64,000 nucleotides of DNA, taken from the NCBI GenBank assembly GCA_903901225.1, contig CAIUQE010000034.1, forward strand, positions 17,391 to 81,390. Reading direction: 5' to 3'. Origin of the DNA: Candidatus Omnitrophota bacterium. Lineage in GTDB: Bacteria > Omnitrophota > Gorgyraeia > Zapsychrales > Fredricksoniimonadaceae. The notes under the pieces are model-generated. The model was not told the origin of the DNA and did no database searches. It saw only the letters and a program-made list of their open reading frames with translations. Shown piece by piece: positions 1 to 17,500 of the stretch (within the stretch, counting starts at the first letter, position 1; each line of letters opens with the position of its first letter). Made by a program: the position numbers and the translations under genes.

Positions 1-625
1 CTGAATGAACCTTCTCGGCTATATTATCCGAAAGAATAATATCGCCCCACCCATAAGAACTGAACGGCATCAACCTTCCCTCAAGCCCGATGAATTTTTT
101 GCCCTTAAGGTAATGGTTTGTCTTTTGATAATCACGGAACAGATCAATAAATCCTTTGAGGGCGGCGTCGCTCACGCTGAAAACCTGTATGACAGTATTT
201 TCCATGATACGATCATCCCTCATGCTGACGCAAAAAGGACTGCCCTTCCATTTGAAAAAGATCGTTGCGCGTGACCATACCGCCTCATAAATTCCCGGCA
301 TGACCTCTAAATCACGAAAAAGAGGATAAGAAACCCGCGGTTCGCTGTATCTCTCGCTCTCATAATTACCCTCTTCAAGTGTCTCAGCCTGCTCGGAAAG
401 TATCTTCTTCAAGCAGTAAACAGTATTGTTCAACAATATCCCGCTGATCTTCTGCTCATTGATCCGAAGGGTCGCAAGCCGGTCGCGTGACATGGCAAAA
501 TGCCTTGCCAATGCCTGCTGCTTCTCATCATATTCCCTGACTTCATCGTACTGGATCCTGGCGGTTACATAGCGTTCAAACCCCCGATCGATCCAATTCT
601 CAACAAATGCCTTTATCCCGTCCAT
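1..625 (-). CDS. hypothetical protein, 3'-truncated by the window edge (208+ aa; ATG at 625-623)
   Basis: I translated the minus strand by hand from the ATG at 625 down to nt 1 and found no stop. It is not in the ORF track because it has no stop inside the window. It overlaps and is more protein-like than the plus-strand ORF at 5..274. It has no recognisable family. The C-terminal part, ending KFIGLEGRLMPFSSYGWGDIIL, could precede a P-loop domain. Confidence 0.4.
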   Translation of the reverse strand, partial: MDGIKAFVENWIDRGFERYVTARIQYDEVREYDEKQQALARHFAMSRDRLATLRINEQKISGILLNNTVYCLKKILSEQAETLEEGNYESERYSEPRVSYPLFRDLEVMPGIYEAVWSRATIFFKWKGSPFCVSMRDDRIMENTVIQVFSVSDAALKGFIDLFRDYQKTNHYLKGKKFIGLEGRLMPFSSYGWGDIILSDNIAEKVHS

Positions 626-698
626 GCCAACCCCCCTGTCTTTGTATTTCTACAAGCATAACAGGGGGTGGCGACAGCATTGTGTCGCGGATATAAAC

Positions 699-735
699 AA
701 AAAGCCGGACAGCATTTTGTGCCGTCCGGCTAGCA
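699..735 (-). terminator. rho-independent terminator downstream of the 792..1385 gene
   Basis: Read on the minus strand this is a GCCGGAC..GTCCGGC hairpin followed by TTTTTGTTTATA. It sits 60 nt past the stop of the 792..1385 CDS. Confidence 0.55.
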
Positions 736-791
736 GAAAGAAAATATTAAAGTTTATAGTTTAACCTTATTGCCCTTAATTAGAACATGAA

Positions 792-1385
792 TCAGATCGC
801 CCTAACATTTGCTTCTATTTCATGTAAGAACGCCGACACAATAGGGAAATTGTTCAAAGTATCCTTAACTTGCCCGTCATTTAGAAAATGCTCGAAAAAT
901 TCTTGAGAATTAATATGCGGCATATGCCTGCTGAAAAAGTCTACAACTTCATCGACAAATAGTTTTGCCGCCGATACTGAATTCTCTTCAATATAACGGT
1001 CGCTCACGACATGATCTTGCAAAGGCACCTGGATAAGCAACAAGGGATTCTGATTGTGCGGTCCGAGTCCACACCAGCCAAACTTAGGATATCTCGTTAA
1101 ATCTCGAAATCTTCTATAATCCTGTGGATAGTATGTGAACATTATTTGATCGCTAGCAACAGTAATGAACATGGAGAAAATAAACCATGTTTTCGTCTGT
1201 TCGTCATCAAATAACCCAACTGCGCGCCTCCAGGATTCTGCGTCGAAGAAAGAATCCCCCGGATTAGTGGCATTCGTACCTGGAACAAAACTTATTCTTT
1301 TAAAATCATTTCGAAATTCCTCCAAATAGTATCCCCTAATGTCGTTTGGCATCCTATTCTCCATTTTATTTTGCTGGGCTCTCAT
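792..1385 (-). CDS. hypothetical protein (197 aa)
   Basis: Intact ORF in the low-GC island with no recognisable motifs. Confidence 0.5.
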   Translation of the reverse strand: MRAQQNKMENRMPNDIRGYYLEEFRNDFKRISFVPGTNATNPGDSFFDAESWRRAVGLFDDEQTKTWFIFSMFITVASDQIMFTYYPQDYRRFRDLTRYPKFGWCGLGPHNQNPLLLIQVPLQDHVVSDRYIEENSVSAAKLFVDEVVDFFSRHMPHINSQEFFEHFLNDGQVKDTLNNFPIVSAFLHEIEANVRAI

Positions 1386-1441
1386 ATACTTTTCAACATT
1401 CTACCTTCAGCCTACCTTTATCTCAAGAATCAAATATCAAC

Positions 1442-2014
1442 TCAATGTTTCTTATTCCTGTTCGCATGCGATCCTACGCTAAGAAGTAAATACACGGCGA
1501 TAAAACCCACCGTGATCACAAAACCGAGAACAATTTGGAACAAGTTGATAATAAATGACTCACACGCGTTCTTTGTCCAGCGCGTTGTCCTCCCAAAAGG
1601 CAGGCAGCACATGGCCAAAGTAACAAGCGTTGATATTATAGGACAACCCGGCCAGGTTTTATTGGACGGCTCCAGCTTTAAAGAACAAATCGTTAGATCG
1701 GAATGTCCAAAACAACCGTTCAACCACATACATCCCACAATTAACCATATCCCCACATAAATGAAAACATTGCTCCAGGCAAACAACGGATAATCGTACA
1801 GTTCCCTTACCCTCTCCTTGTAACTATAAATCCCCCAACTTAACAACACCCAGACAACCACGCAGCCGACAAATATAAGCGTCCCTTCCCAGGTAACACC
1901 AAGCATCGTCAATTCCTTCACAATGCTCCAGTTCATCACCCAGTTTGATATTTGCCCTAAGTAGCCCTGTGCATGGATCGTGCCCATAAACAAATACCGC
2001 CCTTTTCCTAACAT
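1442..2014 (-). CDS. hypothetical integral membrane protein (about 4 TM segments)
   Basis: Several hydrophobic helices, e.g. TLIFVGCVVVWVLLSWGIY and IVLGFVITVGFIAVYLLL. The true start is uncertain. Confidence 0.4.
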   Translation of the reverse strand: MLGKGRYLFMGTIHAQGYLGQISNWVMNWSIVKELTMLGVTWEGTLIFVGCVVVWVLLSWGIYSYKERVRELYDYPLFAWSNVFIYVGIWLIVGCMWLNGCFGHSDLTICSLKLEPSNKTWPGCPIISTLVTLAMCCLPFGRTTRWTKNACESFIINLFQIVLGFVITVGFIAVYLLLSVGSHANRNKKH

Positions 2015-2051
2015 TACCTACGACTCATTCTCTAAACCATCCCGACAATTG

Positions 2052-2438
2052 CTATGAAACAATCCCTTCAATGATCAAGGGGCTCCCCTTGTTCTCAGGC
2101 AGGCAACTTTTATCCGGAAAAAAAGTGATCATTTCGGGGCAACAAACACCGACAACATTCTTTTTCAGGCCGCTCCACTTCACAAGATAAGCAGGGATCG
2201 GGATCCTCATGAAACCATGCTTCTTTAAATCGATTTCATTGGTCCCTTTAATTAACGTGTCCAAAAGGTCGCTTGCGGCCTTACTCCCCAACTGCTGTCG
2301 CAACTTCTTCCCCATTTGGAGCCATTCTTTCTTGGGAAACATATAAAGCCCCGCCCTCTTTCCTCTAATTAGGAAAACTTTCTCAAACTTGTTCTTTTGT
2401 AAGAAGTCTTTTAGCTTCGCATTGATGACAATGTTCAT
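2052..2438 (-). CDS. MraZ-like (duplicated SpoVT/AbrB-type) putative DNA-binding protein
   Basis: Two-half architecture resembling MraZ: FLIRGKRAGLYMFPKKEW and ...KKHGFMRIPIPAYLVKWSGL. Its stop overlaps the phosphatase gene by 4 nt (ATGA). Confidence 0.35.
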   Translation of the reverse strand: MNIVINAKLKDFLQKNKFEKVFLIRGKRAGLYMFPKKEWLQMGKKLRQQLGSKAASDLLDTLIKGTNEIDLKKHGFMRIPIPAYLVKWSGLKKNVVGVCCPEMITFFPDKSCLPENKGSPLIIEGIVS

Positions 2439-2887
2439 ATAGCGCTTTCCTTAGACAAAAACCTCACCGCCGCACCGGTTCGATCTCTTCCGGCACTACA
2501 ATGAACCAGCACAGGCTTGGGCAAACCTCGAAATGCCTCCAGCACTCCCCGCGATTCTTCCGGTGATAAAGCCGGCGACTTATGATCCCGCACAGGAATA
2601 TGCACCACATCAAAACCTTTCTTTCTGTAATAAGCAACAAGCCCTTCCGTTACATCATAAAACTTGAGTTGCTCGTCATCGAGGAGGCATATAATTGACC
2701 TTATTCCGCTCTCTTGAATTGGCTCAAGCCATCGATCAACCTCCGCCTGCCCGATCCCCTGCTTCTTTGGATATCCAGGCCGCAAACTTCTAGCTAACAC
2801 ACCTTCTTTTACCCATTCAATCCCAAAACCAATACTTTCCCTTACCATGAGAGCCTCCTTATTAACTGGATAGATCATAAAGCACAA
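2435..2887 (-). CDS. protein-tyrosine / dual-specificity phosphatase family protein
   Basis: CX5R catalytic P-loop VHCSAGRDRTG. Confidence 0.7.
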   Translation of the reverse strand: MCFMIYPVNKEALMVRESIGFGIEWVKEGVLARSLRPGYPKKQGIGQAEVDRWLEPIQESGIRSIICLLDDEQLKFYDVTEGLVAYYRKKGFDVVHIPVRDHKSPALSPEESRGVLEAFRGLPKPVLVHCSAGRDRTGAAVRFLSKESAI

Positions 2888-2898
2888 AAGCGACGACC

Positions 2899-3171
2899 TT
2901 ATGTCGCACCCCTGGCAGTTTCAGGATATTTCCTGAATAAATACAGCATTCCTAACGTCAAGACCAGGTTAGCCACGCCGCTTGCGATAAATACAGGCTC
3001 CCTGATGGCGATCGCCCGGATCAGATAACAGGCTATTGCGACGAACAATATCTGATATGTCATCACGCTTAACCCTTTCGTTGACCGCTCTCTGACGGAT
3101 TTAACCAACTGCGGGATCGATGTCAGCATGCCAAGAACCATCCCAACCCATCCTATTGCCTCAGTCCACAT
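2899..3171 (-). CDS. SemiSWEET / PQ-loop (MtN3-like) small transporter
   Basis: 90 aa with three TM helices and a PQ motif in TM1 (LTSIPQLVKS). Confidence 0.6.
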   Translation of the reverse strand: MWTEAIGWVGMVLGMLTSIPQLVKSVRERSTKGLSVMTYQILFVAIACYLIRAIAIREPVFIASGVANLVLTLGMLYLFRKYPETARGAT

Positions 3172-3254
3172 ACCTCGCCTTTCTTTCGTTTAACGTCTTT
3201 ACTTCCTGTGACAAGGATACAACAATGTGGCGACATCATTATGTCGCGTTAAAA

Positions 3255-3290
3255 TAAAAAAGCCGGACAGCATTTTGTGCCGTCCAGCTT
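3255..3290 (-). terminator. rho-independent terminator downstream of the yhaV-like gene (second copy of the repeated hairpin element)
   Basis: AAAAAAGCCGGACAGCATTTTGTGCCGTCCAGCT. On the minus strand this is a hairpin followed by a T-run. Confidence 0.5.
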
Positions 3291-3365
3291 GATGATTCAG
3301 TTGAAAACAATACTATCTTCTATGCCATCAACTTTCAAATCCGCCTTACCCGCGATCCTAACGCA

Positions 3366-3818
3366 TCAATACTGGTAGCGCCGGATCCATTTCTGAATAG
3401 CAGGATCTTGAGGATCGTGGGAAGTCTTTCCGCCTCTGACCATCTGCTTAAATTCCTCATAAGGATCATTCCCACCCCCCTGCTTCCTCAAATGATCTTT
3501 ATCGTTAACATATAGATAAATGATAATGCCAGGTTTGTTCGAGAAGCAAAACATGATCCTGTACCGCTGCAACCCCTGTTTGTACCTTCTGTACTTCCTA
3601 AGATCACCGGAAAGCACGTATTCAGGCCTGTTGGGATCTTCTGGAATGATCTCTACCGTGGCCCTTCTGATCCTTGCAGCCAGTTTTACCGTCTCATGCT
3701 GGGAAAATTCATCCTTTGAAAGAGTGGCATGTAATTTCTTTACCTGCTCTTTCAGCTTGCCGATCCGCAGGGCAAATAACTCATGGCATTTGAGATAATA
3801 CTTACTCATCTTCCGCAT
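3366..3818 (-). CDS. yhaV: type II toxin-antitoxin system YhaV-family toxin
   Basis: Clear similarity to E. coli YhaV as I recall its sequence. RYRIMFCFSNKPGIIIYLYVNDKDHLRKQGGGNDPYEEFKQMVRGG matches RYRLFFRYSEKEKVIILGWMNDENTLRTYGKKTDAYTVFSKMLKRG. Confidence 0.75.
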   Translation of the reverse strand: MRKMSKYYLKCHELFALRIGKLKEQVKKLHATLSKDEFSQHETVKLAARIRRATVEIIPEDPNRPEYVLSGDLRKYRRYKQGLQRYRIMFCFSNKPGIIIYLYVNDKDHLRKQGGGNDPYEEFKQMVRGGKTSHDPQDPAIQKWIRRYQY

Positions 3819-5082
3819 CCACGCCTTTTAACAACATATCCCACTCTTTATCCCAGACCTTGTGCATGTCCTGCAACTTATGGGGATTCTTTAAAGAGTC
3901 CTCCACCAATGCTTTAATGAACGTCTTGAACTCAGGTTCTGATTCAATGTTTTCCAGCGTGTTCTTGGACACCATGATCAGACGGTCTTTATCATACTTA
4001 ATTATGATCTCAGTATTACCCGACCCGACGAACTCTTTGGGAAGATCTATCGCGCAGCTTCCACACTCCTTCAAATATCCATCCACCATCGCCCTGATCT
4101 CAGCCTTGAATGGCGCCGGCTCCAGGACCGTCAAACACGGGATCCAATGCATGATCAGGTGTTTGATCTCCTCGGGATGTGCCGGAAACGTTGCGATCAC
4201 CATAGAACCGTCAGAGCATTCCTCAACGGTCTTCTGAAGCGGGAAGAAACAACACGACTTGAAATATGGAACAACTTCCGGCGCGACGCGGATCAGGACG
4301 CGATCACCGCGCTTTTCGTCAAACCAGATATTCACACTCTCATCCAGGATCTTGTTGATATCGAGCTGCGGGCTGAAATAATCATCTTCCAGGTTTTGGA
4401 CATCCCTGATCCGGTCGACACGGTACTTCTGGATCTGCTTCTCCCCGTTCTTTATGGCGATCAAATACCAGAAGCCGCCGTAAAACGCGAGCTTGAGCGG
4501 TTCAAGATAATATTCTTTTTCGACCTGGGCCGCGTTGATGTATTTCATCCGGATGCGGTTGCTTTCAATGATAGCGGCCTGAAGAAAGCCGACCTCGGTC
4601 GTCGCCGGCAAAGGCAACTGCTGGGCTGACACCTTCACATAAAACGGCGAATCGAGCTTCTTCATGGTCACGCGCGAAAAAAGGTCCTTGAAAGAATTTT
4701 CAAATGTCTGACCCAGATCCGTGGCCATTTCGAACAGGAACGACATGAGTGACGCCTGTTCCTGGGTCAGCGAAAATTTGCGCAGCGTATACCCGGCAAG
4801 GAACGAATACCTGCCTTTATCCGGCCCGAGAATAGGGATCCCCGCTTCTTTAAGCACGGTCAGGTCACGTTCGATCGTGCGCTGGACAACATCGAATTCC
4901 TTAACAAGATGCTCAATTGAAACGGAATTGCCTTGATCAAGGACTGAAAGGATGGCAATACGGCGCGCGGCAGCCTTCTTTTGAGATTCCGGCATCTTTT
5001 TCTCAGCGGACCTCTTGAAGGTTACAGTTTTTTTCTCACGACGTGTCCGAGCCTTCTTCACGGCCTTCTTTTTTACCGGCAT
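3802..5082 (-). CDS. HTH-WYL-WCX transcriptional regulator fused in-frame to a PrlF-like (SpoVT/AbrB) antitoxin domain
   Basis: HTH at IAILSVLDQGNSVSIEHLVKEFDVVQRTIERDL and WYL motif FYGGFWYLIAIKNGEKQIQKYRVDRIRDV. The C-terminal 95 aa (nt 3802-4089) resemble PrlF (FIKALVEDSLKNPHKL...LLKGVDAEDE vs FLRFLDADIQNNPQK...LVAGMDVNIDDEIGDDE). The likely start is the ATG at 5082-5080, 2 nt after the DUF2779 stop. The ORF track extends it to 5151. Confidence 0.7.
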   Translation of the reverse strand: MPVKKKAVKKARTRREKKTVTFKRSAEKKMPESQKKAAARRIAILSVLDQGNSVSIEHLVKEFDVVQRTIERDLTVLKEAGIPILGPDKGRYSFLAGYTLRKFSLTQEQASLMSFLFEMATDLGQTFENSFKDLFSRVTMKKLDSPFYVKVSAQQLPLPATTEVGFLQAAIIESNRIRMKYINAAQVEKEYYLEPLKLAFYGGFWYLIAIKNGEKQIQKYRVDRIRDVQNLEDDYFSPQLDINKILDESVNIWFDEKRGDRVLIRVAPEVVPYFKSCCFFPLQKTVEECSDGSMVIATFPAHPEEIKHLIMHWIPCLTVLEPAPFKAEIRAMVDGYLKECGSCAIDLPKEFVGSGNTEIIIKYDKDRLIMVSKNTLENIESEPEFKTFIKALVEDSLKNPHKLQDMHKVWDKEWDMLLKGVDAEDE

Positions 5083-5084
5083 AG

Positions 5085-6647
5085 TCAACCTTTCGTAATG
5101 ACCCTTAACGCAGTCAGGATATCTACCATTCCACCTGTGTCCAACCCGCAATATGCCTCCAGATCAGCATAAACTTTGGCACGATCAATCGGGTCAACGC
5201 CCGCGCCGTAAGTTACCCTGGAATATTCTGACGTGGCCTGCCCGCCGTCGGCAATGGGCATTCCCTCATAACCCTTGCCTGTTAAAGCCGGCAGGACCTT
5301 CTTGAGCGACGCGGAGCCGTGCTCATCAGGGTGGTAATAATAGAACTTCTGGAATGGCACCAGAAGATCGACCAGACGGAGGTTGATATCTTCACAGCAC
5401 TGCCGGTACGCGGGGAACTGCTCGCCTATCTCCTTCAAACGCAATTTCTCAAAGGACTGGTTGTACGCCACCACATCCCCTTCCTGCCCCATGCAGGCGC
5501 TTAAAGCTTTGATGAATTCCAGGCGAGGATCATCGGCCTTTTTATGCAGAAAAGCATGATGTTCAACCGGCCCGCCGGGCGTTCTTTGAATATGCACAGA
5601 GAACTGGAACGGGATCTGCTGGTACGGCCGCGTGCCATTAAAGCGCGGCAGGACCTCGAAGATCGTCTCAAAATCCATAAAGTAGAGCGGGTAGCGCAAA
5701 CTTTTGATGAACGTATTGATCTCATCAAGTTCCACATGCGGTTGTTGCGTTATCGCGCAAACACGCTGGATCTGCTGGTTGGCCGACAGTTTAACGTTAT
5801 CAGGAATATCTTTAAGGCGTAAAACACCCTGGTCGATAAGGTCAAACCCTTTGGACTTCCCCCGATACAGCTCAAGCACGTGCTCCCTGGGAAGGAACGC
5901 CCAGCAGATCGGGATCATCTGGCACTCGTAAGGATCGCGGCAATGCTCCCTTATCGATATGTGCGGACACGCGGGCATGTCGATGATATCGAGAAACCCC
6001 TTCACCAACGACGGTGTCACACCGTAGAACGGCTTGATCTCTTCCGTGACATCAAGCAGGGTAAATAATTCATGGGGGTTAATATCCCCGTCACGCACAT
6101 ACGTGTTATTCACGTGCATCAAATAGCAGCGGCCGATCCTGATCCCGGCCTGTTCGTAACAATAACGCTGGAACGCGATGTCCTGTAAATAGACATCCTT
6201 GCACTTCGTCGAGCATTTCACCTCGATCACGTCCCAGACGCCGGGCTTTTCAGGTGAAGGCCGCAGGATATCCGCGCGGGCATAAAGCCGCCCCGCCTTG
6301 ATCCCAGCCTCATAGATGGGCTTCGGGTCTTTTGACGCTAATAGCGCCTGCGTTTCCGCCAGGTTCTTCAAAAAATCATCTTCCTGGACATGAACCCCTC
6401 CCGGAAAGCACCTGGTCGCCAATTCACTGACGAGATGGCCCGTATCGAAAACTTTCTGCAGCGCGGCGGTCGGTTCGGGAATTTCTAGCGGGGCATTGCA
6501 ACGCGTCCAGAGCAATTTAGGGCACTGCAAGCCGTTGAGGAATTTGGACTTGGTAAGAAGCTTCGGGTCCCTGCGGACTTTTGTTTCGATCAAGAACTCC
6601 AGCAAACCGTCGCTGCGTTCTTCCTGATAAAGGTTCTCTTCACTCAT
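5085..6647 (-). CDS. DUF2779-family protein (PD-(D/E)xK nuclease-like N-terminus and a DxE exonuclease-like motif)
   Basis: VWDVIEVKCSTK has a D..EVK motif. YFMDFETIFE is the DUF2779 signature. Length is 520 aa. Confidence 0.65.
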   Translation of the reverse strand: MSEENLYQEERSDGLLEFLIETKVRRDPKLLTKSKFLNGLQCPKLLWTRCNAPLEIPEPTAALQKVFDTGHLVSELATRCFPGGVHVQEDDFLKNLAETQALLASKDPKPIYEAGIKAGRLYARADILRPSPEKPGVWDVIEVKCSTKCKDVYLQDIAFQRYCYEQAGIRIGRCYLMHVNNTYVRDGDINPHELFTLLDVTEEIKPFYGVTPSLVKGFLDIIDMPACPHISIREHCRDPYECQMIPICWAFLPREHVLELYRGKSKGFDLIDQGVLRLKDIPDNVKLSANQQIQRVCAITQQPHVELDEINTFIKSLRYPLYFMDFETIFEVLPRFNGTRPYQQIPFQFSVHIQRTPGGPVEHHAFLHKKADDPRLEFIKALSACMGQEGDVVAYNQSFEKLRLKEIGEQFPAYRQCCEDINLRLVDLLVPFQKFYYYHPDEHGSASLKKVLPALTGKGYEGMPIADGGQATSEYSRVTYGAGVDPIDRAKVYADLEAYCGLDTGGMVDILTALRVITKG

Positions 6648-7257
6648 GGTGATCAGACCTCCACGTCATTGTTTTAAAGTATAGCCGATGCGAAACACTT
6701 TTGATAATGAAAACTTCTGCCGCATCCCTTACCCGACAGCTTCTTCACGGATATCCTCAAAGCGCATATACTGCCCCTGAAAACGCAGCATTACAGCGCC
6801 CAATGGACCATTGCGGTGTTTTCTGACACAAACCTGCATTTTTCCAAGATCAGCGACCGTGGCGCCTTAATTGAGCGGGATATTTCACTGATCTCCTGCT
6901 GACGGTCCTTTTTACCTTCCAATATAAAAGGTAGCTACGACAGCGTTATGTCGCTATTTTATAAATCAGTCTTAACCCCTCCTCCTGTTATCCCCGTATT
7001 GTAAATCTTTCATATTATGGGGACACCCGAAACTTTGATCTCTTGATGACGAGAATCCGAGCTGAAATCGTCGTCGCCCCACCGGGCGGACACAAGGTCC
7101 GCCCCTACGCTCACAATAATCATCCTCTCGATTTGCTAAAGATTTACGCAAAAACGCGGGGGAGGGCTTCATTAAGGCCATCGCTTCAATAAACTTTCAC
7201 ACCCCGGAAGCATGGAAATTCTTGTGGATTTGACGGCGTGTTGTAAAATACAGTCCT

Positions 7258-8451
7258 ATGAAACGATCCATTCACCTCTGGCTGACAGCCGGCTTCATCC
7301 TGTTATTCGCGATCGGCTTTGCCTGGCGGCACCCGCGCACGGCGCCACTGCCGGCCAATGCCGCGCTGGGTTACGGCGGACCCATTGCCATCGCCCTGAC
7401 CGCCTCGTCGACGGGAGAGATCACGGATGTCAAGGTTGCCCGGCACAATGAAACACCTTCTTACGTCACGGGCATGCCGGAATTCCTGCGGCAATTCAAC
7501 GGGCGCACGGTCCACAGCCCCCTGAAACTCGGGCACGGCATCGACGCCATGTCCGGCGCGACCGTCACCAGCCGCGCCATCCTCCTGGCCGTAAAAAAAG
7601 ACCTCTTCGGCAAGATGAACCTGCCCCTGCCCGCGGATGACACGGCGGGTGACTTTCCGTGGGCGCAGGTCCTTGCGCCGCTGTTCCTCTGGCTGATCGC
7701 CCTGGCCGCGCTCCTGCGCCGCAGCAGTGCCTTGCGCTGGGCCGCCATGGCGGGCGGGTTCGTGTATTTCGGGTTCATCACCCATACCATGCTTTCCATC
7801 GTCCAGGTCGTACAGGCCGGAATATGGCACATCCCCGGCTTCAGGGATGATCCTTTGTGGTGGCTCCTCATGGCCACGGGGCTGGCTGGCGGCTTTTTAT
7901 TTGGCCGCGTCTACTGCGGCAGCCTCTGCCCTTTCGCGCTGGTGCATGAACTGCTGCACCTGCTGGTGCGGCGCAAACGCCCGGCATCACCGGGCATCTC
8001 GCCGAACCTCGACCGCAACGCGCGGCTGATCAAATATGCTTTGCTCTTTGTGATCACGGGCCTTTGCTTTGTTCTTGGCAACGCCGCGGCGGCGAACATG
8101 GAACCGTTCATCACGCTTTTTTCAGGGCATGGCGGCAAGATGGCGTGGTTTTTCCTCGCGCTGATGTTCGTCATGGGCATATTCTACTTCCGCGCCTGGT
8201 GCGCGTACCTCTGCCCGGTGGGCGCGCTGACCGGCCTGGTCGCCCTATTCAGTGTCAACAAGATCGTCCCGGCCAAAACCTGCACGGCCTGCGACATCTG
8301 CGCGAACGCGTGTCCGTCCAACGCCATTGCCAAAGGCGCTCATGCCCGTCCCGTCGTTGACATGACGGAATGCATCGCCTGCGCGAAATGCCTTCGCGCC
8401 TGCCCGGTGAACGCGCTACAATGGAAACGTGGCCCCGATGAAAAAGCATGA
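7258..8451 (+). CDS. NosR/NapH-like membrane protein with an FMN-binding domain and 4Fe-4S ferredoxin domains
   Basis: FMN_bind signature GYGGPI...ITDVKV..HNETP..IDAMSGATVTSRA. CX3CP motifs CGSLCPF and CAYLCPVG. Two CxxCxxCxxxCP ferredoxin motifs near the C-terminus. Confidence 0.7.
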   Translation: MKRSIHLWLTAGFILLFAIGFAWRHPRTAPLPANAALGYGGPIAIALTASSTGEITDVKVARHNETPSYVTGMPEFLRQFNGRTVHSPLKLGHGIDAMSGATVTSRAILLAVKKDLFGKMNLPLPADDTAGDFPWAQVLAPLFLWLIALAALLRRSSALRWAAMAGGFVYFGFITHTMLSIVQVVQAGIWHIPGFRDDPLWWLLMATGLAGGFLFGRVYCGSLCPFALVHELLHLLVRRKRPASPGISPNLDRNARLIKYALLFVITGLCFVLGNAAAANMEPFITLFSGHGGKMAWFFLALMFVMGIFYFRAWCAYLCPVGALTGLVALFSVNKIVPAKTCTACDICANACPSNAIAKGAHARPVVDMTECIACAKCLRACPVNALQWKRGPDEKA

Positions 8452-13898: not shown

Positions 13899-14599
13899 CG
13901 TCCGACCAGGGAATAAAAATGTTCAGGGACCGGCGCATTGAACGTCATGCGTTCCTTTGTTTTGGGATGCGGGAAAGAGATCGCGTAGGAGTGCAGTGCA
14001 AGAAAAGGATACTTGGCGCCAGGCCTTCCATACTTCGTATCACCGACGAGCGGATGCCCGTGATGCGCCATGTGGACACGGATCTGGTTCTTGCGCCCGG
14101 TCAGAAGGTCAATTTCAAGCAGGCTGTATCTGTCCGTCGCCTTGATAACTTTATACGCCGTGCGAGCGAGCTTGCCGTCTTCCGCTTCTTCCAGGGAATG
14201 CACGCGGTACTTGTCATCCTCGACCAGATAGCTTTCGATCAACCCCTCGGGCTTGGCCAGGCGCCCGTGCACGACGGCATAATATGTTTTTTTGGTATCA
14301 GGCCAGTTGTTCTTGAGGGTCTGCTGGATCGTTTCACTCTTCGCAAAAATGAGCACACCTGACGTTTCCCGGTCCAGCCGGTGCACGACGTAAACACAAC
14401 GGTGCGAACGGGAATTGCCCTTGCGCACGTAAAGATTAAGAAGCTGGTGAACGGTCCGCTCACGCTCATACATCGCGGCGACGGTGAGAAGGCCAGCCGC
14501 CTTGTTGCCAACGATGATGTCATCGTCATCATAAAGAATGTGAAAACCTTTGGGCTGATGCTTTCCCGAGACAGGTTTATTGGTATGCCGCGCCATCAT
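13889..14599 (-). CDS. RluA-family pseudouridine synthase
   Basis: HRLDRETSGVLIFAKS catalytic motif. Its start overlaps the stop of giant gene 1. Confidence 0.8.
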   Translation of the reverse strand: MMARHTNKPVSGKHQPKGFHILYDDDDIIVGNKAAGLLTVAAMYERERTVHQLLNLYVRKGNSRSHRCVYVVHRLDRETSGVLIFAKSETIQQTLKNNWPDTKKTYYAVVHGRLAKPEGLIESYLVEDDKYRVHSLEEAEDGKLARTAYKVIKATDRYSLLEIDLLTGRKNQIRVHMAHHGHPLVGDTKYGRPGAKYPFLALHSYAISFPHPKTKERMTFNAPVPEHFYSLVGRWA

Positions 14600-17500
14600 T
14601 TTCCTTCCATTACCGCCGCTCCGGCGCCGTTGAACAAAGGCAGCCCCGCCGCCGGACGTATGTTCAAAATAACCGGCACCAGGCCGTCGATGTGGATATT
14701 GTCCAGGTCCTGCTGGGCTACCGGCAAAGGCACCCCGGCGCCGTCGCGCTTGATCTGCATGTCGAGATTGGAGGCGGCGAAATCGATACCGCCTGGCTGA
14801 ACAACTTTCTCTGCCATGTCAGAAGACTCTGAATTTGATCCAGTTACTTTGCGTTTCGATGTTGTCGCGGCCTGATCAGGAAACCGGCTTATATCCTCTA
14901 TCGGTCGTTCCGATTTAATTAAAAGCCAGTCGTCTCCCCTGAATGATATCCCATCAATCCCATAAATGTAAGCCACAACATCAATCAAATAAGGTGCCAA
15001 ATGCCATAAATTATGATCAAATTCATCGTTATCAAAAACTTTAAACATCTCATTGCGAATTAAAGATACGGAACTATCAGACACGACATCCCCATCAAAT
15101 GAAATCTTGACCCAGGAATCTGATTCCTGTAAAAATTTTAACAATGCCCTGTTCCCATTATTAACAAAAGTCCAAATGGATCTTCCATTAAAATAAGATT
15201 CCGCCTTACCCCACGAAAATCCATCACGACAAATATGCTCGACATCTTCGGGCGATTGAGTAACTCGCTTATGATTAACCTCATGGAACAATTCAAGAAT
15301 TTTTCTTTCTCTACCAGAATAATACGATCCCATCTCCAGGACAAACTTTGCCAGCTTCCTGCTTTGAATTAACGCCTGCCGTAGCGTTCTTTGAGAACCT
15401 TCTTTTAACGGATCATCCAGTGTAGGAAAAACATACGGCATTTCAGCGATAGCTCGACCCAACAATCCCGGCATCAGCTCCATACCAACAGAATTGAACA
15501 ATGTAAAATTGTTATTCTGCGTATCATTCCGCAACCAAACCTCTTCTCCTCCCGGGGCAACAAAGCGCAGATTGAGCTCAATCTGAGCGAAGGCTGATGG
15601 AGGGGTAAATCTTGCTTCCAGAATATAATTACCATCCCCGTCACGCTCATCCGTGGCCGTCAATGCCAACGGCAGATCGCTCTCGGGTGCAGACCAGTCA
15701 TGATAACTGATGCCAACCTCGTCAATATCAAAATGGCTAAAACGGACAAAACCTTTTATGGCCCTAAGATACCTGTCGAGTCGCTCGCGGGACATCTGTT
15801 TGTCATTCAGCGCCATGGCGAACCTGAGGGCAACCTGCCCCTGTTTGTCGACAACGACCTCGGATCCACTCGGCTGCTGGATATGCCCGGCCCAGACTAA
15901 CTTCACCCCAGATAGATCACCCGCCGCATCTGTTACGGCCTGGCTTTGATCCGGAACATTCTTTTTCAATTCAGCCACACGATATTCAAGATATTCCGGC
16001 AACGTCATGGAAACCGCGGGAAAATCAATGTGCTCATATTTTTTGCGCAATGTTAATCCCATTTTCATTTGAGCCACCAGCGACATCGCGTCCCCCATCG
16101 ACGCCGCGCCCCGCCCGAAAGGGTTCGCCTGAAAGAACCACCATTCATATTCGGCAAGCGCCGACAACCGATTATCCATCCTCAACGCATCATCCATGAT
16201 CCGATCCCATAATTGAGTCAAGTGTTCCATAATAGCAGGGATATCCGTATCGTTAGCGTTATAAAGCAGGATCGCGTCTCCCTGGTCATCCATCTTCTGC
16301 ACATACATTACGCCCGTCGACCCGATCTCCTGCTCATGAGAATAACGCCTGAAATCAGATTCAGTGTACGATTTCACAAACCCGGGATGGCTTAACCGCT
16401 GGTGCAGCATTTTATACAGATCGCCATACCTGTTAGAACCCCGGATGCGCGTGGCCGGAATAAGATCATCTGGCAACCCCAGGAACCTTGTTTGAGAATC
16501 GATACGAAGATCCTCGGCCACCCTGCCTTCACTCGGACGCACGCCCGTTTCAGCCGCCGTCAACCGCGCCTGAAAAACTGAATGCAATATCCTTATATGC
16601 CTTTGTTCGGGCCTTTTGAACAAAGAAACGACCATGGCGGCCATGATCTTGCCGAAACGGTAATTAGTATCAAATCCGGAATTTTTAGGGGCACTCATGA
16701 TCTTGCGGACCTTCCTCTCCAGAAGATCATAATATTGGAACTCAGGAACAGCTACAGCCCCAAGCCCTTCGAAACCACGCCATGTTCTTATGCCAACATC
16801 CTGCGCCAGGTCCTTCGTCGCCGCAGCCTGGCCGGACCAGTTCATCCCGTTTGCCGGCTCTAGATCCGGAACATTCTTTTTCAGTTCAGCTACGCGATAT
16901 TCAAGATATTCCGGCAACGTCATGGATAACGCGCGGAAATCAAGGTTCTCGTAACCAACACGTATCGATAACCCCATCTTCAGCTGGGCCACCATCGACA
17001 TCGCGTCTCCCAAAGCCGCCCCGCCCCTCCCGAAAGGATTCGCCTGGAAGAACCACCATTCATATTCAGGGAGCACTGACAAACGACGGTCCATACCCAG
17101 CGTGGCATCCATCATCGTATCCCATAGTTCAGTCAAATGCCGCATAATGACAGGAACATCCGGATCTCTGGCGCTATAGATCCGGATCGACGTGCCAAAA
17201 GAATCAATGATCTGTTGATACATCCCGCCCGTTGATCCAATTTTCTGGTCACGGAAATATCGTACGCCATTGGTAATATAATGATTTTCTGAAAATCCTT
17301 TTTCCAGCAGTCGTTGATGTACCATTTGATACAATTTTTGATACCTTCCGGAATTCCGAACAGAGATGTATGGCGTACCGTCGATCCATTCTAAAGTCAA
17401 ACCTGAAAGTCTTGCCTCTGAAACATTACGAAAAACTCCCACAACTGTATAGTCATCAATACTCAGCTGTTCAGAAGCCACTGACAGGCGTGCCTTAACC

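Follow-up and report, generated by a model that had tools for sequence, protein, structure and literature searches.

Transcriptional regulators with a WYL domain are common, and to our knowledge DNA targets have been described for only a few of them (PafBC, DriD, BrxR, CapW and SiwR). Here we analyzed a 64,000-nucleotide stretch of DNA (the window) from a Candidatus Omnitrophota bacterium (GenBank assembly GCA_903901225.1, contig CAIUQE010000034.1, positions 17,391 to 81,390 of the forward strand). The left end of the window is a GC-poor island that carries a repeated two-hairpin element and a gene for a WYL regulator, WYL1. The element is probably an intrinsic terminator followed by a WYL-dependent hybrid promoter that would drive the DUF2779-nuclease/AAA-ATPase island.

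The promoters of the activator PafBC carry the consensus tGTCgg(N10)tA(N3)T, the 5' part of which lies at -23 to -28 (the '-26 element'), with a canonical -10 box and no -35 box (PMC8635444). PafBC is a PafB/PafC heterodimer with one helix-turn-helix (HTH) touching DNA, which activates through contact with sigma region 4 upon a single-stranded DNA trigger; its hosts are mycobacteria and other Actinobacteria, and its known regulon comprises ~150 DNA-repair genes genome-wide. DriD of Caulobacter crescentus, a homodimeric activator of HTH-3HB-WYL-WCX build, recognizes ATACGAC(N7)GTCGTAT in promoters without a -35 box, where the site keeps a fixed distance to the -10 box (PMC10853764, PMC13004042). 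In contrast, BrxR and CapW are WYL repressors of defence systems (PMC13004042).

At the Omnitrophota locus, the palindrome GCGACA-N6-TGTCGC (18 bp) was found in six copies within 21.5 kb, where 0.03 would be expected. Four copies lie in the window and two just past its left edge (L001 17412 and 20107; the comparison loci L001 and L002 are one metagenome contig, and L001 equals the window exactly over an overlap of 16,647 bases). All six are intergenic and oriented with the genes (minus strand in the window), and the other ~57 kb of the window contain none. Exactly 10 nt after each palindrome follows TATCCT, TATGCT, TATACT, TATAAT, TATATT or TATGAT, and all six copies fit the pattern [T/C]GTCG[C/T]-N10-TATNNT. 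Across 68.9 kb this combined motif had 7 matches, every one inside the island and in the gene orientation, compared to a mean of 0.27 in shuffled sequence; the seventh match, which lacks the left half-site and lies within an open reading frame (ORF), is probably due to chance. The distance from the palindrome to the next start codon is 12-64 nt, or 290 nt for the copy that heads an operon with a leader. An initial annotation had listed three copies of the element, at 668-731, 3227-3288 and, as a partial third, 6931-6956. These positions were recovered, with short-palindrome matches at 671-688, 3230-3247 and 6937-6954, but the count was too low, the palindrome at 2890-2907 having been overlooked. 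The predicted promoter features of the window are:

671-688, minus strand: operator copy A, reading GCGACACAATGCTGTCGC on the minus strand, upstream of an AAA-ATPase gene
655-660, minus strand: -10 box TATGCT, 10 nt past operator A; the start codon at 625 is ~23 nt beyond the predicted transcription start
3230-3247, minus strand: operator copy B, GCGACATAATGATGTCGC, upstream of the SemiSWEET gene
3214-3219, minus strand: -10 box TATCCT, 10 nt past operator B
2890-2907, minus strand: the overlooked operator, GCGACATAAGGTCGTCGC, with one mismatch, overlapping the SemiSWEET stop codon and without a terminator
2874-2879, minus strand: -10 box TATGAT, 10 nt past the operator at 2890-2907
6937-6954, minus strand: operator copy C, GCGACATAACGCTGTCGT, at the right edge of the island, predicted promoter of the DUF2779-WYL1-YhaV operon
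6921-6926, minus strand: -10 box TATATT, 10 nt past operator C, with a leader of ~267 nt to the DUF2779 start at 6647

On inspection of the six sequences, no TTGACA-like hexamer was present 16-18 bp upstream of the -10 box, a position taken up by the operator centre (ATAATG, ACAATG, GTAAGG etc.), and a generic sigma-70 scan listed none of these promoters. Relative to the predicted transcription start, the proximal half-site TGTCGC occupies -28 to -23 and the distal half-site ~-40 to -35, so that the operator spans ~-40 to -23. The -10 box at 2874-2879 places transcription start near 2867; thus, the phosphatase gene behind it most likely begins at ATG 2848 (137 aa, preceded by AAGGAGG) rather than at TTG 2887 (150 aa). 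Note that the 5' leader behind operator C (6648-6914, minus strand, ~267 nt) is unusually long. Within it lie two imperfect inverted repeats, 6779-6823 and 6847-6894, along with a sigma-70-like match (6707-6678), and Rfam reported nothing there.

The second part of the element, the long hairpin, behaves differently. Its long arm, AAAAAGCCGGACAGCATTTTGTGCCGTCCGGCT, matches 699-731 perfectly and 3257-3289 with 1 mismatch, where chance would give 0 matches. On the minus strand it reads AGCCGGACGGCA-caaaa-TGCTGTCCGGCT followed by a T-run, 61-76 nt past a stop codon, and it is present in 2 copies only:

703-731, minus strand: intrinsic terminator A, 12-bp stem, loop CAAAA and T-run, predicted to end the transcript of the 186-aa gene (792-1352)
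3260-3290, minus strand: intrinsic terminator B, 13-bp stem and T-run, predicted to end the DUF2779-WYL1-YhaV operon

The 86-nt stretches that hold terminator and palindrome fold with -30.9 kcal/mol (z -4.9 and -5.2), and terminators A and B are the two strongest terminator-like matches in 1-7300. At the single position where B differs from A, the minus strand has a U.G pair and the plus strand a mismatch. In contrast, the third copy of the palindrome forms a weak hairpin (-7 kcal/mol, z -0.8), and two of the six palindromes sit in apparent operons without a terminator. Thus, with two terminators and six palindromes, the two hairpins are separable; full two-hairpin copies number 2 in ~73 kb of genome (the window plus a 9.2-kb extension in L002). 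The view that the element terminates the upstream minus-strand gene holds for one of its hairpins (stem of 12-13 bp, T-run, z ~-5), and the description of the element as punctuation stands, since it does punctuate transcription units. A further perfect GC-rich hairpin, GGGCGGAC-N5-GTCCGCCC, occurs in two copies, at 7084-7104 in the gap between the island and the NapH-like gene at 7258-8451, and at 25097-25117 inside a 1208-aa ORF; by eye, neither is followed by a T-run.

For comparison, loci were fetched solely because they encode a relative of WYL1. In three lineages with regulators 48-61% identical to it, GCGACA-N6-TGTCG[CT] is present in 2-6 copies per lineage; almost every copy is intergenic and in the gene orientation, with N10-TATnnT behind it. 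In 26 loci from metagenome-assembled genomes (MAGs) labelled Omnitrophota or Planctomycetota (360 kb), CGAC-N8-GTCG occurs 46 times, compared to 0-3 times for gaps of 4-7 and 9-12 (0 for a gap of 7). A set of 70 unique operator sites, taken from L002, L005, L006, L008 and L009-L054, gave the consensus gCGACA..A.g.TGTCGc-N10-TAta.T with an AT-rich upstream flank. With no -10 box imposed in the search, the favoured offset of TAnnnT after GTCG was 11, seen in 70 of 146 orientations (other offsets, 1-16). In a group of 20 loci that is mainly Elusimicrobia, 9 nt separate the half-sites, yet offset 11 is kept in 40 of 54 orientations. The conserved quantity is thus the distance from the proximal half-site to the -10 box, as expected if the proximal HTH occupies the position of PafB beside the polymerase. 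Many operators of L036-L053 (mainly Elusimicrobia MAGs) have a -10 box at offset 11 on both sides, an arrangement of divergent promoters on one shared palindrome, typically between the WYL gene and its neighbour. The first gene behind palindrome promoters in other genomes is most commonly a DUF2779 gene (8/52), with AAA ATPases in 7 cases and the WYL gene in 4.

The terminator was also traced in these loci. Like other intrinsic terminators, it has a GC-rich stem of 12-13 bp, a 5-nt loop, a T-run and strongly favourable folding; unlike them, its sequence is conserved together with the operator across genomes. The hairpin GCCGGAYGGCA...TGCTRTYCGG accompanies the operator at L009 13884 and 16054 and at L006 16625/L007 16371. 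These composites sit between unrelated genes, which is unusual for a plain terminator, and the stem changes in L006 are transitions that preserve G.U pairs. Overall, a terminator-like hairpin precedes 10 of the 70 operators, compared to 7 of 350 random positions. Recombination at conserved junctions could account for this linkage, as could selection for insulated units.

We consider WYL1 the candidate binder of the palindrome. By Pfam, it consists of HTH_11/HTH_DeoR, WYL and WCX domains. The best solved relatives of WYL1, of its paralog WYL2 and of the profile of their 19-member clade are PafBC (6sj9), DriD (8tp8, 9pfq) and PafC (7p5x), with PafBC the best for the clade profile; none of the nine PDB matches of this profile at E <= 0.001 is a BrxR or CapW entry. 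WYL2 aligns to DriD (8tp8) at full length, over residues 38-330 (E = 4e-8), at low identity. A recognition helix Q-R-T-x-(E/Q)-R-D is kept in the clade, and its R-T aligns with R-R-T of DriD, the Arg37 of which contacts guanine. WYL1 homologs with a source name come from Candidatus Omnitrophica MAGs.

All genes in 1-6650 are on the minus strand. From right to left, in the direction of transcription, they are:

5085-6647, minus strand: DUF2779 protein, 520 aa, Cas4-like PD-(D/E)XK nuclease plus predicted 3'-5' exonuclease
3802-5082, minus strand: WYL1, 426 aa, HTH-WYL-WCX regulator
3805-4062, minus strand: C-terminal tail of WYL1, AbrB/MazE/VagC-type antitoxin, in-frame fusion
3366-3818, minus strand: YhaV-family toxin (Pfam Toxin_YhaV, E = 3e-26), its start overlapping the 3' end of the WYL1-antitoxin gene
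2899-3171, minus strand: SemiSWEET/PQ-loop membrane protein, 90 aa, behind operator B
2435-2848, minus strand: dual-specificity/tyrosine phosphatase-like protein, 137-aa model
2052-2438, minus strand: weakly MraZ-like (AbrB-fold) protein, 128 aa, matches below the Pfam and NCBIfam cut-offs
1442-2014, minus strand: uncharacterised gene, 190 aa, apparently a membrane protein by eye
792-1352, minus strand: uncharacterised gene, 186 aa
1-625, minus strand: 5' part of an AAA-ATPase gene (458 aa in full), cut at the window edge, behind operator A

In published descriptions, DUF2779 proteins combine a Cas4-like nuclease with a predicted 3'-5' exonuclease (PMC3985635, PMC13621843). Left of the window follow a second AAA ATPase, DUF6745/MORN and DnaB_C proteins, a second DUF2779 protein, a GIY-YIG protein and WYL2. 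The last three form a second module at L002 16866-19910 (approximately window positions -5500 to -8560; 520, 142 and 339 aa), and the best match of this paralogous DUF2779 protein in the protein collection is 78%. No operator belonging to the second module was found with two mismatches permitted. The module is packed tightly behind the operator-promoter at L002 14813; thus, WYL2 as well as WYL1 appears to have a palindrome promoter upstream.

The tail of WYL1 (86 aa) matches stand-alone 98-aa antitoxins of PF04014 across 98% of its length, at identities of up to 93%; elsewhere, the genes of these antitoxins directly precede YhaV. The regulator is thus physically joined to the antitoxin of the toxin that it precedes. 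The fused antitoxin lacks ~14 N-terminal residues of the 98-aa protein, and the end of WYL1 stands in their place. An identical fusion protein is encoded on 29 contigs. As in PrlF-YhaV type II modules, a YhaV toxin gene is preceded, with overlap, by the coding sequence of an AbrB/MazE-fold antitoxin; unlike in those modules, the antitoxin is N-terminally shortened and fused to the C-terminus of a WYL regulator. A similarity of the tail to PrlF itself was not seen: BLASTP against an E. coli PrlF sequence gave E = 31 and Pfam nothing relevant. The database match was of the AbrB/MazE/VagC type, which bears out an antitoxin as such. Note that in L009 and L012 the WYL genes are ordinary (~340 aa) and without YhaV, though tblastn seemed to reach into the tail.

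How does the locus compare with the described systems? With PafBC promoters it shares a 22-nt motif (TGTCGC(N10)TATNNT here) of the same letters and spacing, with the proximal element in the same register, as well as the canonical -10 box, the missing -35 box and the HTH-WYL-WCX build of the regulator. The differences are the full 18-bp palindrome, the hosts (Omnitrophota, Planctomycetota and Elusimicrobia MAGs) and the scale, our view being of a local island. Like DriD sites, the site is a pseudo-palindrome with CGAC/GTCG cores and an AT-rich centre, located at a fixed distance from the -10 box in promoters without a -35 box, with apparent autoregulation. Unlike in DriD, the gap is 8 nt (9 nt in the Elusimicrobia-group relatives) and the spacing is GTCG-N11-(-10), compared to GTCG-N21-(-10) as deduced from published oligonucleotides, which would put the site about one helical turn closer to the -10 box. 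Thus, the palindrome appears to resemble the DriD site in the register of PafBC. The presence of one WYL gene per locus in the relatives suggests a homodimer, and together with the palindromic site it points to a PafBC-like mode of action by a regulator that is not a member of the PafBC system. As with BrxR and CapW, a WYL regulator adjoins defence-type genes that it would control by binding inverted repeats in promoters; the rigid coupling to the -10 box and the missing -35 box point to activation, in contrast to these repressors.

Repression is nonetheless the alternative closest to this scheme. The same operator and WYL regulator could act as BrxR and CapW do, over the -35 region, with release upon phage infection or DNA damage, making the locus a de-repressible defence or stress island. 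Its genes are defence-like (a Cas4-like nuclease, GIY-YIG, YhaV toxin and AAA ATPases), and the operators of L006 and L008 that lie near WYL start codons without a -10 box at N10 look autoregulatory. We consider this unlikely, as neither inspection of the six copies nor the sigma-70 scan revealed a TTGACA-like -35 box to be covered, and single-base rigidity to the -10 box across phyla, despite a change in gap, is expected of a polymerase partner and not of simple occlusion. Moreover, the closest solved relatives, PafBC and DriD, are activators, and the motif equals the PafBC activator consensus. A different regulator is conceivable as well: DNA binding is a property of AbrB/MazE-type antitoxins and of MraZ, and the island encodes proteins of both kinds, so that the operator could serve the MraZ-like/AbrB-fold protein (2052-2438) or the antitoxin fused to WYL1 rather than the WYL HTH. 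However, loci picked by WYL homology alone still carry the palindrome. Operators are present in L004-L008, the gene tables of which contain no MraZ or YhaV gene, and in L009 and L012, where the WYL gene is followed by neither a YhaV gene nor an antitoxin tail. The fused antitoxin, moreover, is N-terminally incomplete, and the half-sites are those of the WYL regulator DriD, making this reading highly improbable.

Two further explanations would do without a DNA-binding operator. The initial annotation had seen in the element a REP/MITE-like sequence (repetitive extragenic palindrome/miniature inverted-repeat transposable element), that is, a mobile or repetitive element in an acquired region acting through its hairpins without a dedicated island protein. 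Like REP elements and MITEs, the repeats are short, palindromic, intergenic and punctuate operons. Two near-identical ~80-nt copies lie between unrelated genes in a GC-poor host region, and the composites of L009 and L006/L007 have a similar setting. In contrast to such elements, copy number is very low and no dispersed copies were found: the exact long arm has 0 matches in 185,579 reference genomes, 0 in JGI metagenomes and 0 in the remaining 57 kb of the window. By eye, a three-way alignment of the copies with their flanks showed neither terminal inverted repeats nor target-site duplications, no systematic search being made; similarity in this alignment gave the visual impression of fading on both sides. 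The hairpins occur independently (2 and 6 copies), and the sequence of the palindrome, not merely its pairing, is kept across phyla beside WYL genes in fixed register with the -10 box. With the hairpins separable, the palindrome hairpin weak, its -10 coupling rigid and conserved across phyla, and its motif matching PafBC and DriD, we abandoned this interpretation, to which we give next to no credence. The palindrome might instead act as an RNA hairpin (e.g., as a 3' end that stabilises mRNA, as a processing site or as an attenuator). A hairpin of 6-7 bp is possible, the two copies within apparent operons without an upstream terminator would be transcribed, and the copy at 2890-2907 is followed by TTTTGTGCTT and appears in the terminator scan. 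Against this stand the low stability measured by the z of the third copy, mismatches that break pairing in several copies (e.g., A-C in the 2890 copy) and a stem that is fixed rather than covarying (A4 in 66 and T11 in 65 of the 70 sites, the CGAC/GTCG cores being set by the search pattern). An RNA hairpin also gives no reason for the -10 box at offset 11 or for -10 boxes on both sides in the Elusimicrobia-group loci, and we regard it as very unlikely. Integron attC sites (the repeat is too short and R'/R'' cores were not seen), a CRISPR-like array (the spacing is irregular and on the kilobase scale) and a sigma-54 or extracytoplasmic function (ECF) sigma factor promoter (the -10 box resembles that of sigma-70 promoters, and a -35/-10 pair needs a spacer longer than 10 nt) were rejected, none of the three by a dedicated test.

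Several observations weigh against a WYL-dependent activated promoter. The proposal rests entirely on sequence, namely on the geometry and conservation of the observed motif copies, on their occurrence alongside WYL genes and on how the terminators fold. PafBC, as a heterodimer, recognizes a non-palindromic motif and needs RNA polymerase to bind DNA, whereas the site here is a full palindrome. DriD sites have a 7-nt gap and would lie further upstream. An operator at ~-40 to -23 would occlude RNA polymerase, and BrxR and CapW, the WYL regulators that adjoin defence genes, are repressors (PMC13004042). Some operators directly upstream of WYL genes in L006 and L008 are without the -10 box at N10. 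The operator centre is asymmetric with respect to the -10 box (A7 in 58/70 and G9 in 52/70 sites), which is not explained by a symmetric dimer; A7 and G9 fall where a -35 hexamer would lie. Finally, the absence of a -35 box was scored against TTGACA, which may not be the -35 consensus of Omnitrophota.

Activation is nevertheless favoured over repression, because the -35 box is missing, the spacing is rigid to one base and the closest relatives are activator WYL regulators. We therefore prefer the hybrid promoter, which would work as follows. An intrinsic terminator would end the upstream transcription unit. Some 13-14 nt further on, the 18-bp palindrome would be bound by the island's HTH-WYL-WCX regulator, WYL1 and/or its paralog WYL2, probably as a homodimer, with the -10 box TATnnT following 10 nt later and no -35 box. 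The housekeeping RNA polymerase would most likely depend on the regulator at these promoters, as it does with PafBC and DriD, and the system may be switched on by a nucleic acid, for example single-stranded DNA. At least six promoters would organise the island into co-regulated units: the DUF2779 nuclease with the WYL1::antitoxin fusion and the YhaV toxin; SemiSWEET; the phosphatase with the weakly MraZ-like protein and two unknowns; two AAA ATPases with one promoter each; and a small protein with DnaB_C, DUF6745, the second DUF2779, GIY-YIG and WYL2.

The island stands out from the rest of the window in composition. GC content is 0.473 in 1-6960 (0.444 in 1-3300 and 0.499 in 3301-6960), compared to 0.565 for the remainder; among 115 sliding windows of equal size (mean 0.557, sd 0.035), 1-6960 ranks lowest. 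In tetranucleotide usage it correlates with the high-GC core at r=0.45, compared to 0.96-0.97 for ordinary segments. Both profiles agree with the AT-richness of 1-6650 that had been noted at the outset, and the sharp GC shift noted there was placed between ~6650 and 7258. To the left, the low-GC region extends at least 9.2 kb beyond window position 1, as seen in L002, and the repeats continue there too. Low GC is not unique to 1-6960, as patches at 14.5-26.5 kb (0.504) and 49.5-56.5 kb (0.514) are also GC-poor; these two are made up of giant repetitive ORFs, a phenomenon distinct from the island. These minus-strand ORFs, at 14596-19686, 19702-22170, 22260-25886 and 49272-56699 (1696, 822, 1208 and 2475 aa), contain internal and mutual repeats, with a 561-nt period at ~50.8-53.8 kb and 300-nt families common to 19-25 kb and 56 kb.

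Horizontal acquisition of the island, as the initial annotation had it, is plausible from its deviant composition and gene content, but the usual marks of integration were not found in the part of it that was in view. A tRNA/tmRNA scan of the window returned none, and hence no tRNA-linked integration site, and the visible part of the island (gene tables of ~16 kb) contains no integrase or flanking repeat. Every assembly that carries the locus shows an identical context. PADLOC, run on the island proteins, reported generic WYL models and a weak Cas4 match (E = 0.0024) and no known defence system, and Rfam, run on the whole window at gathering thresholds, reported no family. At one of its ends, the related island of L006 (1117-1907 and 6274-6573; also L007) carries genes for a resolvase and a MerR/HTH_17-type protein, a hint of mobility. 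The same island encodes a 99-aa protein that is sigma-70 region 4 alone, intriguing given promoters without a -35 box.

In conclusion, what is new is that the WYL-controlled hybrid promoters proposed here lie outside Actinobacteria and Alphaproteobacteria; we found no paper mentioning both WYL and Omnitrophota. More tentatively, and with some doubt on our part, they may represent a class of promoters without a -35 box across Omnitrophota, Planctomycetota and Elusimicrobia, in which a homodimeric WYL regulator on a DriD-like palindrome in the PafBC '-26' register would control a DUF2779/AAA-ATPase module, the regulator of the present locus having captured a YhaV antitoxin by fusion. Such a class would link two separately described features, the DriD palindrome and the PafBC -26 register, and the conserved distance between half-site and -10 box offers a testable handle on how a symmetric dimer might replace -35 recognition. 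For an entire clade from little-studied and largely uncultured phyla, the analysis predicts operator, promoter geometry and core regulon, and GCGACA-N6-TGTCGC-N10-TATnnT could serve in the annotation of these genomes, both to find promoters and to revise gene starts. The widespread, uncharacterised DUF2779 nucleases would gain a regulatory context, probably DNA damage or phage stress. The locus also provides a natural regulator-antitoxin fusion and an example of how a 'REP/MITE-like hairpin repeat' can turn out to be a terminator and an operator. If our reading is correct, the fate of the sensor-regulator would directly gate the YhaV toxin, and PafBC-style reprogramming of the housekeeping polymerase would be ancient and widespread rather than an actinobacterial speciality.

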